DNA of 52,431 nucleotides, filler included, from Perkinsus olseni (lineage: Eukaryota): the NCBI GenBank assembly GCA_013115125.1. It is 2 parts of 2 records of this genome, joined end to end, with 100 filler letters (N's around TTAATTAATTAA, not from the genome) between each part and the next. Parts side by side here need not be neighbours in the genome. Positions count along the whole stretch, not along the records: positions 26,301 to 52,431 come from JABANN010000488.1; 1 more part is not named here. One strand, given 5' to 3'. The notes below the pieces were generated by a model. The model worked only from the letters and a program-made list of their open reading frames with translations. It ran no database searches and was not told the DNA's origin. Positions 48,850-50,492 of the stretch are shown here, in pieces (positions within the stretch are counted from its first letter, which is position 1; every line of letters starts with the position of its first letter). The translations under genes and the position numbers were made by a program.

Positions 48850-50492
48850 ATGGCGCCCCCAACCCGTTGCCTCCTTAGTGCTTTGCTCCGCGTCTGGTTG
48901 TACCTCTACTCGACCCGAGCCGCATCGAGGAACCGAGAGGTCTTGACGGAAGATAGGGACTTCATGAGTTACAGCGAACCGAGAGAATCCCGAGAGGGGA
49001 AGGTGAGTTCAACTGTTGAACTTCAACACTCCAACGAGACTCTGCTGGGATTAACCGCTCTCAGGAGCGGCCACAACTGATTCCCGAGGGAAGAGAACTC
49101 ATGGTCAGTAGAATGATTCTACTTCTGTCCCAAGTTTCGGTTGTGCGGCCAGCTTAGCAACGGGTGAAGTTCCACTCTCAGGCTCTGCGGCGCGATACGG
49201 TGCTCGGCTTCGGAAGAGCAGATGGCGGCAGGGATCTACAGCCTGTAGACTACAGGTGTGCACTAACCTTTATTATTCAGCATAGCAGTTCAAATAACGA
49301 GGCTTACTTCCTGCTGAACTTCGCTGTTTAGGTGTGGCTCGGATTCGATGTCACGGGGACAGGCGCAGGGCAGTCTGCCGCAGTCTGATTTTTCCGCAGG
49401 GCAAAATCAGTCAACTTCCTCTGCCCTGGGCAGAGGAAGTTGACTGATTTTGCGGAACTGGACTATCGCGGGTAGGTTTCTATGTCTGTGTGGCACGAGA
49501 GCACTGCGTTAACTATGTACCAGGAACTCGTCTTATAGTATAATTCGCATGAACGTCGACGCGGAAGCTATGGAAAGGGCCAGATGGAGCCCGGATATGA
49601 TACAGGAGAGTCCGCCCCGGAGACGGGGTGTAGTCTCGCTCAGGAAGCGCTCGTTTTGGCTGTTAAGGGACTCCATTGTCCGAGCATTTAACGATCGGAT
49701 GAGACAGAGGCACGTGTGTAAATCGAAGACTGAGGTGAATGGTGCTGGTGTCCAAGGCAAGAAGCATAGACCGCTAAGCGCACAAGCGCCAAAAAATCTC
49801 CCGGAGCTCTTGTTGCGATGCTTCCGAAATGGCAGTTCCGCATCGGAACTTTACGCAGGAATGATTGGCAGGAATCATCGTACTAACGATGAAACTCGCG
49901 ATAGTTGACTGCCCTCCACGAAGCCCGTCTTCAGGTTACCTTGGGCACTTTCCGAATCACACTTACGTCGACTGACCCGGCCGATGGGTTCGAGATCGTC
50001 CTGCTCACTGCGAAAATTCAATCAAAGTGATCTAACCGCAACCGGACGTTACATGCTACTACCTTGTCAAAAGTGTGATTAGTTAGACCACAAGGGGGGA
50101 GCGATCGTTGGGCTCCCAAGAGCTCGACCGTATCAACTGGCCACTGCCGAGTGGACCGACAATCGCGTTGCTTGGTCAGGTCACTCAGTCCCCACTTTGA
50201 TATGTCGAAATTCCGTTCAATGGTAGCTGAATCGAAGACGATTCGCCGCAGATCAACCAAGAGCCCATATACCGACAATCTGCGTGATCAATGCAAGGAC
50301 CAAATCGATGCATTCGGCAAGTCGGCTTCGAAGCTCCTCGGGCAAGAGCCCCCGTCCTCGGCACCGGAGAGTGCGCTTTCCGTCTTCCACTGGGTCACCA
50401 ATCACTCGCTCACTTATAATTTCCCTGCAGAATTGGGCCGGGGGCAAGAAACCGATTTCAGCTATATAGCGATAGACCTCGCACAAGTATGA
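48850..50492 (+). pseudogene. Unknown secreted-protein family, copy 2, with a 60-nt insertion in the WLGFDV exon
   Basis: Exon 1 ends YSEPRESREGK|gt; VWLGFDV..[insert containing TGA]..RKLTDFAEL; SYSIIRMNVDAEAMERARWSPDM; downstream FDMSKFRSMVAESK domain (50151-50492). Confidence 0.65.
49367..49453. other. Probable hAT excision footprint
   Basis: Two copies of the 8-mer agggcaga have their inner bases complemented (agggcagT … Tgggcaga), and each T is the centre of an inverted duplication (5 bp and 26 bp). Confidence 0.75.

Follow-up and report, generated by a model that had tools for sequence, protein, structure and literature searches.

The model in which hairpins give rise to the inverted duplications seen at transposon excision sites is said to have originated with Coen et al. 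in 1986, for Tam3 in Antirrhinum, and Zhou et al. reportedly found in 2004 that the first nick made by Hermes, the hAT transposon of the housefly, is offset by one base. Hermes is described as generating 8-bp target duplications (PMC10368747), hAT excision as proceeding via hairpins on the flanking DNA (PMC5499845), and the footprints of Ac/Ds, the maize hAT element followed in plants, Saccharomyces and Candida, as deletions and palindromic insertions, the latter centered on a base complementary to the one next to the element, with arms of up to 20 nt in yeast and a maximum of 3 nt in Candida (PMC5873905). These accounts agree with what a preliminary description of the DNA analyzed here had taken as established. 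That DNA, the window, is a stretch of 52,431 nucleotides from Perkinsus olseni (assembly GCA_013115125.1); toward its right end lies a Perkinsus-specific multi-exon gene, here called gene A, the third exon of which carries a 60-nt insertion. This insertion is likely the donor-site scar of a hAT-type cut-and-paste DNA transposon.

The structure of the focal scar, as laid out in Table 1, bears out the preliminary description in detail. The sequence AGGGCAG-t-ctgcc, a filler, a 26-bp inverted copy and t-GGGCAGA are present at 49367-49434, with the right palindrome arm continuing after GGGCAGA as GGAAGTTGACTGATTTTGC to 49453. Thus, the site contains an 8-bp duplication in which both inner bases are changed from A to T, each T being the sole center of an inverted copy of the adjoining flank (5 and 26 nt), and the net gain of 60 nt, with its in-frame TGA, is also as had been proposed. 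A single nt separates the two 26-nt arms, which are 100% complementary, and the 26-mer is found at two places only in the window, with matches in 0 of 100 shuffles. Beyond these 26 nt, the right flank is copied further in inverted orientation: past a gap of 2 nt (49399-49400) comes TTCCGCA (49392-49398), which corresponds to 49451-49457 in reverse complement, a stretch that would extend through three bases of the arm, so that the copy includes 5 extra nt. When the 101-nt focal region was folded as single-stranded DNA, the energy was -37.3 kcal/mol (z = -9.8 relative to shuffles). The possibility that the insert is itself a small mobile element was ruled out, given that the local flanks supply its sequence and that it lacks inverted ends of its own.

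Relatives of gene A were compared across the site. Gene A has two paralogs in the window (∼47313-45720 on the minus strand and 51298 to the window end), detectable only as protein; a blastn search of 48001-51000 against the window yielded no DNA-level paralogs. Pfam searches with the exons of gene A and of the paralogs gave nothing above threshold, leaving the family without a name. In the exon alignment, the 60-nt insert is a clean gap in both paralogs, which read GLKKLTD (51736-51816, plus strand) and GRGKLTD (46852-46784, minus strand) at the site. The ancestral GQRKLTD that had been deduced from paralogs is therefore not the reading of those within the window, which attest no more than the absence of an insert at this position, but it does occur in two P. 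olseni proteins, P0008 and P0009 (both GQRKLTDF); a third, P0013, has RQRKLTDF. P0008 aligns to 48850-50369 in exon-sized pieces (94% identity in exon 1 and 94% in exon 5), crosses the focal site as ...VWLGFDVTGTGAGQRKLTDFAELDYRG..., without the insert, and, together with the window sequence, served to set the limits of exon 3 (donor GT at 49472-49473). The insertion was found in 0 of the 6 P. olseni family proteins identified, which, judged from their residues, represent the empty site in other assemblies. An empty site, which the preliminary description had proposed to look for in alleles and strains, is thus seen at the protein level in 6 of 6 P. olseni proteins, and 2 of 2 paralogs likewise lack the insert.

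The same geometry recurs elsewhere in the window. It was modeled as two single-center palindromes with the outer sides x1..x(n-1) and x2..xn and with centers complementary to xn and x1, and the whole window was scanned for such scars with filler at duplication lengths from n = 2 to 15. Five matches were obtained at n = 8, namely, the focal scar and the four other filler scars of Table 1, compared with none at n = 6, 7 and 9-15; in 200 first-order Markov simulations, there were no filler scars at any n ≥ 6. The low-constraint lengths gave 13 matches at n = 2, 4 at n = 3, none at n = 4 and 1 at n = 5, counts that at n = 2, 3 and 5 are far higher than the simulated means (0.37, 0.12 and 0.005, respectively). 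We attribute this excess to pairings that arose by chance within the large set of real palindromes; the single match at n = 5 re-uses the 47653 palindrome of an n = 8 scar. Among perfect palindromes with arms of at least 8 nt, 15 have a single central base, and none have either no central base or two, with ∼0.8 expected per class. Ten pairs of palindrome centers are exactly 7 nt apart, and no pairs are 6 or 8-13 nt apart.

Such spacing corresponds to a minimal, filler-free scar of 22 nt (x1-7, the complement of x8, the reverse complement of x2-7, the complement of x1, and x2-8), with a net gain of 14 nt. Allowing at most 0, 1 and 2 mismatches, respectively, 9, 15 and 22 minimal scars were detected at n = 8, against simulated means of 0, 0.01 and 0.31 (100 runs). 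The corresponding counts were 0, 0 and 8 at n = 7; 0, 2 and 2 at n = 9; 0, 0 and 1 at n = 10; and 0, 8 and 66 at n = 6, where only 10 constraints apply. At 45527, one of the 2-mismatch matches arises because the 45515/45534 scar can be read in a second way. Altogether, the 52-kb window contains 14 perfect scars (5 with filler, of lengths that vary from scar to scar, and 9 minimal), all with n = 8, in addition to ∼13 decayed ones; 9 of the 14 lie within 47.5-49.5 kb. The exact geometry therefore recurs 14 times, at n = 8 only, with close to zero occurrences in simulations, which supports the earlier proposal of hAT insertion and excision followed by end joining.

Several palindromes lie outside this set. 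The palindrome at 310 fits n = 8 with one mismatch when paired with a partner centered at 341, and a near-minimal scar at 22527-22548, ATCGCAA-T-TTGCGA-T-CGCAAAA, fits the 8-bp pattern if one base was lost from the right copy. For the single-center palindromes at 3240, 37160, 46284, 48636 and 49115 (3218-3262, 37153-37167, 46277-46291, 48628-48644 and 49107-49123), inspection by eye revealed no convincing partner and no recognizable 8-bp duplication. Their arms are perfect over 7-8 nt, with 22 nt at 95% in the case of 3218-3262. These partnerless palindromes may be one-sided scars that lost bases from the other flank.

The filler of the focal scar bears on how the ends were repaired. Its first 8 nt, GCAGTCTG (49380-49387), repeat the left junction at 49370-49377, with the two copies 10 nt apart; because the filler carries both this junction repeat and the extra inverted flank copy, part of it was copied from a template. 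A second small fold-back, GCAG-T-CTGC-C-GCAG, is seen at 49370-49387, and, together with the doubled GCAGTCTG, suggests repeated priming and slippage in repair synthesis. Given that templated synthesis took part, and that filler DNA independent of excision is known in plants (PMC4423477), templated break repair or replication template switching could be envisaged to have copied nearby sequence in inverted and direct orientation without any transposon. This explanation is highly improbable: template switching would explain the filler, but under it duplication lengths would vary and centers would not be confined to one complemented base, whereas the window displays a sharp peak at n = 8, the only length from 6 to 15 that recurs, and centers of a single type (15 versus 0).

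For the hAT-type excision that we favor, the succession of steps, the type of enzyme and the route of repair that we infer at the focal site are as follows. An element would have inserted into exon 3 of gene A, duplicating the 8-bp target AGGGCAGA. On excision, the transposase would nick each flank one base from the element end and join the flank strands as a hairpin; with the nick displaced in this way, the base at the hairpin tip would be the complement of the element-adjacent base. A one-base offset of the Hermes type would yield just the single complemented central base that is seen here. Host nucleases would then open both hairpins 3' of the tip, the left one 5 nt away and the right one at least 26 nt (probably 33 nt) away, and the hairpins would unfold into two palindromes, each centered on T; opening of both 3' of the tip would account for the plus-strand T at both centers. 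The ends would finally be joined after short, partly templated fill-in synthesis, leaving the 21-nt filler. In the case of the minimal scars, the 3' overhangs of the two opened hairpins would anneal and be ligated without loss. Because these overhangs would be exact reverse complements over the 8-bp duplication, such annealing would be lossless, which predicts the 22-nt product and would explain why it is the commonest; derived by reasoning, this is the natural explanation for the minimal scars. Judging from the perfect arms and the insert-free proteins of other assemblies, the hAT activity would be recent.

Comparison with the described systems brings out both shared and distinct features. 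RAG/Transib hairpins are not known to have the one-base offset, so that no central base is left, and are associated with 5-bp duplications, whereas the Perkinsus scars have 8-bp duplications and a single complemented central base. What they share is the off-center opening of flank hairpins that results in palindromic additions, as in the P nucleotides of V(D)J coding joints (PMC5499845). With Ac/Ds, the likeness extends to the retained 8-bp duplication, unexplained filler bases, microhomology in joining and palindromes whose central base is complementary to the one next to the element (PMC5873905). The differences are the longer arms, the host, here a perkinsozoan, and the main product, here a join of duplication, inverted duplication and duplication (+14 nt) that was not found in the part of PMC5873905 drawn on here. 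Hermes is alike in its 8-bp duplications; on the side of the differences, no transposase was identified among the ORFs of the window, and the nTnnnnAn preference described for Hermes (PMC10368747) is visible only weakly here, if at all.

The scars could instead have been produced by another flank-hairpinning superfamily with duplications of ∼8 bp, such as the Mutator-like elements, Merlin or some relative not yet described, rather than by hAT proper. Mutator-like elements also form hairpins on their flanks and make 8-10-bp duplications (PMC5499845), Merlin-related transposase open reading frames (ORFs), without recognizable ends, have been reported in P. marinus, with Merlin duplications being 8-9 bp (PMC8101967), and no hAT transposase was seen among the ORFs of the window. 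Nevertheless, this alternative is unlikely. All 14 perfect scars have duplications of 8 bp, never 9 or 10, and single complemented centers. By comparison, Mutator-like duplications of 8-10 bp are usually 9 bp and are accompanied by a symmetric hairpin and long ends; for Muta1, in particular, PMC5499845 describes 8-9-bp duplications, a symmetric hairpin of 43 + 43 nt, excision that is more than 90% precise and long inverted ends starting with GGG. Merlin elements have inverted ends with a conserved 5'-GG (PMC8101967), whereas the one element delimited in the window starts with TAGAG, and no perfect 9-bp scars were detected. The Dada elements of P. marinus, for their part, make 6-7-bp duplications.

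The element delimited in the window, of 263 bp (14568-14830), was the single match when inverted ends bordered by the same 8-mer on both sides were sought. Its ends, TAGAGCTGGGCAAC and TAGAGATGGGCGAC, match at 12 of 14 positions, and 11 of the 21 copies of CCGTAC/GTACGG in the window are located inside it as subterminal repeats. The hAT terminal inverted repeat consensus is said to be YARNG (Rubin et al., 2001), and the short TAGAG ends and subterminal repeats agree with what we take to be this hallmark of hAT elements. The duplication around the element, ATGGCGAT, fits nTnnnnAn. This agreement concerns the 263-bp element, which need not be the source of the focal scar. Further copies were not found in the window, where the loose end-like matches at 22796 and 35567 are within chance expectation. 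A candidate second element, decayed and with approximate boundaries (Table 1), sits between divergent paralogs and has inverted repeats of ∼25-28 nt (28 nt at 89%), although its two ends disagree over their outermost 3-5 nt. Its flanks, GACCTGGG and CCCCTGGG, are alike at 6 of 8 positions, 26 of the 94 GGATC/GATCC sites in the window are concentrated at 47.6-48.4 kb, and four scars lie inside it, with another just outside.

Several observations weigh against a hAT origin of the focal scar. A Pfam transposase domain was detected in 0 of the 274 stop-to-stop ORFs of at least 70 amino acids, a result that applies to the window and carries no inference for the whole organism; the hAT transposase that the preliminary description had proposed to look for was thus not recovered within the window, and, because of this, the superfamily assignment is drawn from the scar signature by itself. 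The Hermes-like target preference is weak at most (of 15 sites, 6 carry T at position 2 and 5 carry A at position 7), and the overall target consensus over these 15 sites is weak as well. The 26-nt Perkinsus arm (33 nt with the interruption) is longer than the 20-nt maximum given for Ac/Ds in yeast (PMC5873905), and templating accounts for only part of the 21-nt filler. The focal evidence consists of the scar and a protein-level empty site, without an element-filled allele; the source assemblies of the proteins are 78-94% identical in exons, so that the empty-site nucleotides AGGGCAGA are putative. Finally, no report of hAT elements or excision scars in Perkinsus was found in the literature searched, where the only reports found on Perkinsus elements concern Dada, Merlin-related and Tc1-like elements.

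The focal insert is, in addition, known from assembled sequence alone, every insert-free protein belongs to a different assembly, and the window consists of two contigs with an N-TTAATTAATTAA-N linker between them, all of which would be compatible with an assembly or sequencing artefact. Such an origin is extremely improbable. Scars with 1-2 mismatches are present, as in real aging sequence, and filler lengths differ among scars. We know of no artefact that gives an 8-bp-specific pattern with a complemented center. The linker itself, at 26201-26300, comprises 44 N, TTAATTAATTAA and 44 N and resembles an artificial spacer designed to stop translation in every frame.

TABLE 1 Positions of gene A, the components of the focal scar, the other perfect scars and the elements in the window
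Feature	Position	Strand	Details
Gene A	∼48850-50490	+	Perkinsus-specific, multi-exon
Exon 3 of gene A	49332-49471	+	Holds focal scar; acceptor ...tttag/GTG, donor GG/gtaggt
Focal scar, left copy of 8-bp target duplication	49367-49373	+	AGGGCAG, bases 1-7
Focal scar, left palindrome center	49374	+	T, complement of duplication base 8 (A)
Focal scar, inverted copy of left flank	49375-49379	+	CTGCC, 5 nt, hairpin-derived
Focal scar, filler	49380-49400	+	21 nt, partly templated
Focal scar, in-frame stop	49386-49388	+	TGA, brought in by insertion
Focal scar, inverted copy of right flank	49401-49426	+	GCAAAATCAGTCAACTTCCTCTGCCC, perfect 26-nt copy of 49428-49453
Focal scar, right palindrome center	49427	+	T, complement of duplication base 1 (A)
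Focal scar, right copy of target duplication	49428-49434	+	GGGCAGA, bases 2-8
Filler scar	14702-14736		Centers 14709/14729; duplication CGTACTTG; inside 263-bp element
Filler scar	19142-19218		Centers 19149/19211; duplication GAAACAGG
Filler scar	45508-45541		Centers 45515/45534; duplication TTACCGAG
Filler scar	47646-47682		Centers 47653/47675; duplication TCAGGTCC
Minimal scar	30902-30923		22 nt (net +14 nt); duplication CTACCCCG
Minimal scar	33161-33182		Duplication TTGGCGGG; in aspartyl-protease paralog 3
Minimal scar	41125-41146		Duplication ATACGTAC
Minimal scar	47557-47578		Duplication GCCCACCC
Minimal scar	47831-47852		Duplication TGAGGAAG
Minimal scar	47864-47885		Duplication GGTCCTAC
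Minimal scar	48047-48068		Duplication CGAAGGTA
Minimal scar	49007-49028		Duplication GTTCAACA; just inside gene A intron 1
Minimal scar	49235-49256		Duplication TCTACAGG; across gene A exon/intron junction
Non-autonomous element, 263 bp	14560-14838		Element 14568-14830 plus perfect 8-bp duplication ATGGCGAT
Candidate second element, decayed	47590-48381		Inverted ends; boundaries approximate

Among the filler scars, that at 19142-19218 combines perfect arms of 15 and 7 nt with decayed extended arms (23 nt at 87% and 18 nt at 83%). Gene A alone contains three scars: the focal one, with its TGA, and the two minimal scars at 49007-49028 and 49235-49256. This copy of the gene is, on its sequence, truncated unless the insert is spliced out. 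A candidate 51-nt intron, similar in size to the neighboring intron, is delimited by GT at 49383 and AG at 49433, and its splicing would preserve the frame and add three residues.

A second affected gene belongs to a tandem cluster of pepsin-like aspartyl proteases (Pfam PF00026) on the minus strand, at 26978-28183, 28908-29310, 29613-30767 and 32297-33521. The last of these, paralog 3 (33521-32297), is frameshifted by the 14-nt minimal scar that it contains, and residues 114/115 of the protein P0004 map to 33171/33156, a 14-nt gap at this scar. The same paralog carries a perfect 17-nt tandem duplication at 32718-32751 (TGGCCGGGTGGGCCGAA twice), which matches its second alignment break (P0004 residues 251/252) and is not of the hairpin-scar type. 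The cluster includes two intact single-exon ORFs, one fragment and one copy broken by the 14-nt scar and the 17-nt duplication; the single-exon aspartyl-protease ORFs match P. olseni proteins at up to 93% identity, which places the window in Perkinsus, with P. olseni as the closest species.

Other genes were identified in the rest of the window. At 4323-9613 (minus strand), SNF2-related and helicase C-terminal domains are encoded in ORFs the size of exons, as would fit an SNF2-type ATPase gene divided into several exons by short introns. A SAP-domain ORF at 45078-45287 (plus strand) and ORFs at 21096-21530 and 22238-22456 (minus strand), with EF-hand matches just under the Pfam curated cut-offs, appear to be ordinary host genes. 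Finally, a 191-amino-acid open frame at 17027-17599 (minus strand), with long Thr runs and occasional Ser, resembles a low-complexity protein of the mucin type or an ORF that arose by chance.

The excision mechanism as such is already textbook; what is new is the host lineage, for which no report was found in the literature searched, and how dense and uniform the scars are. They occur about once per 2-4 kb in the window (14 perfect and ∼13 decayed) and are clustered around a tandem secreted-type gene family. These scars provide sequence-level evidence of hAT-type DNA transposon activity in Perkinsus, probably recent. They disrupt genes, as illustrated by the stop in a member of the secreted-type family and the frameshift in the aspartyl-protease paralog, and account for 14-nt frameshifts that would otherwise be taken for assembly errors or pseudogenes. 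The pattern (x1-7, complement of x8, ..., complement of x1, x2-8) is searchable, opening the way to a genome-wide transposition history and to comparison of haplotypes and isolates, and also makes it possible to deduce how hairpins are opened and ends are joined in this lineage. We suggest, tentatively, that Perkinsus might harbor a hAT-like cut-and-paste system of very high activity, or else a nuclease derived from hAT and retained by the host, a possibility that we regard as doubtful. If true, scars, not resident elements, would be a leading source of frameshifts, stops and new splice signals in lineage-specific families, and the 22-nt join of duplication, inverted duplication and duplication would be an overlooked genome-wide mutational signature.

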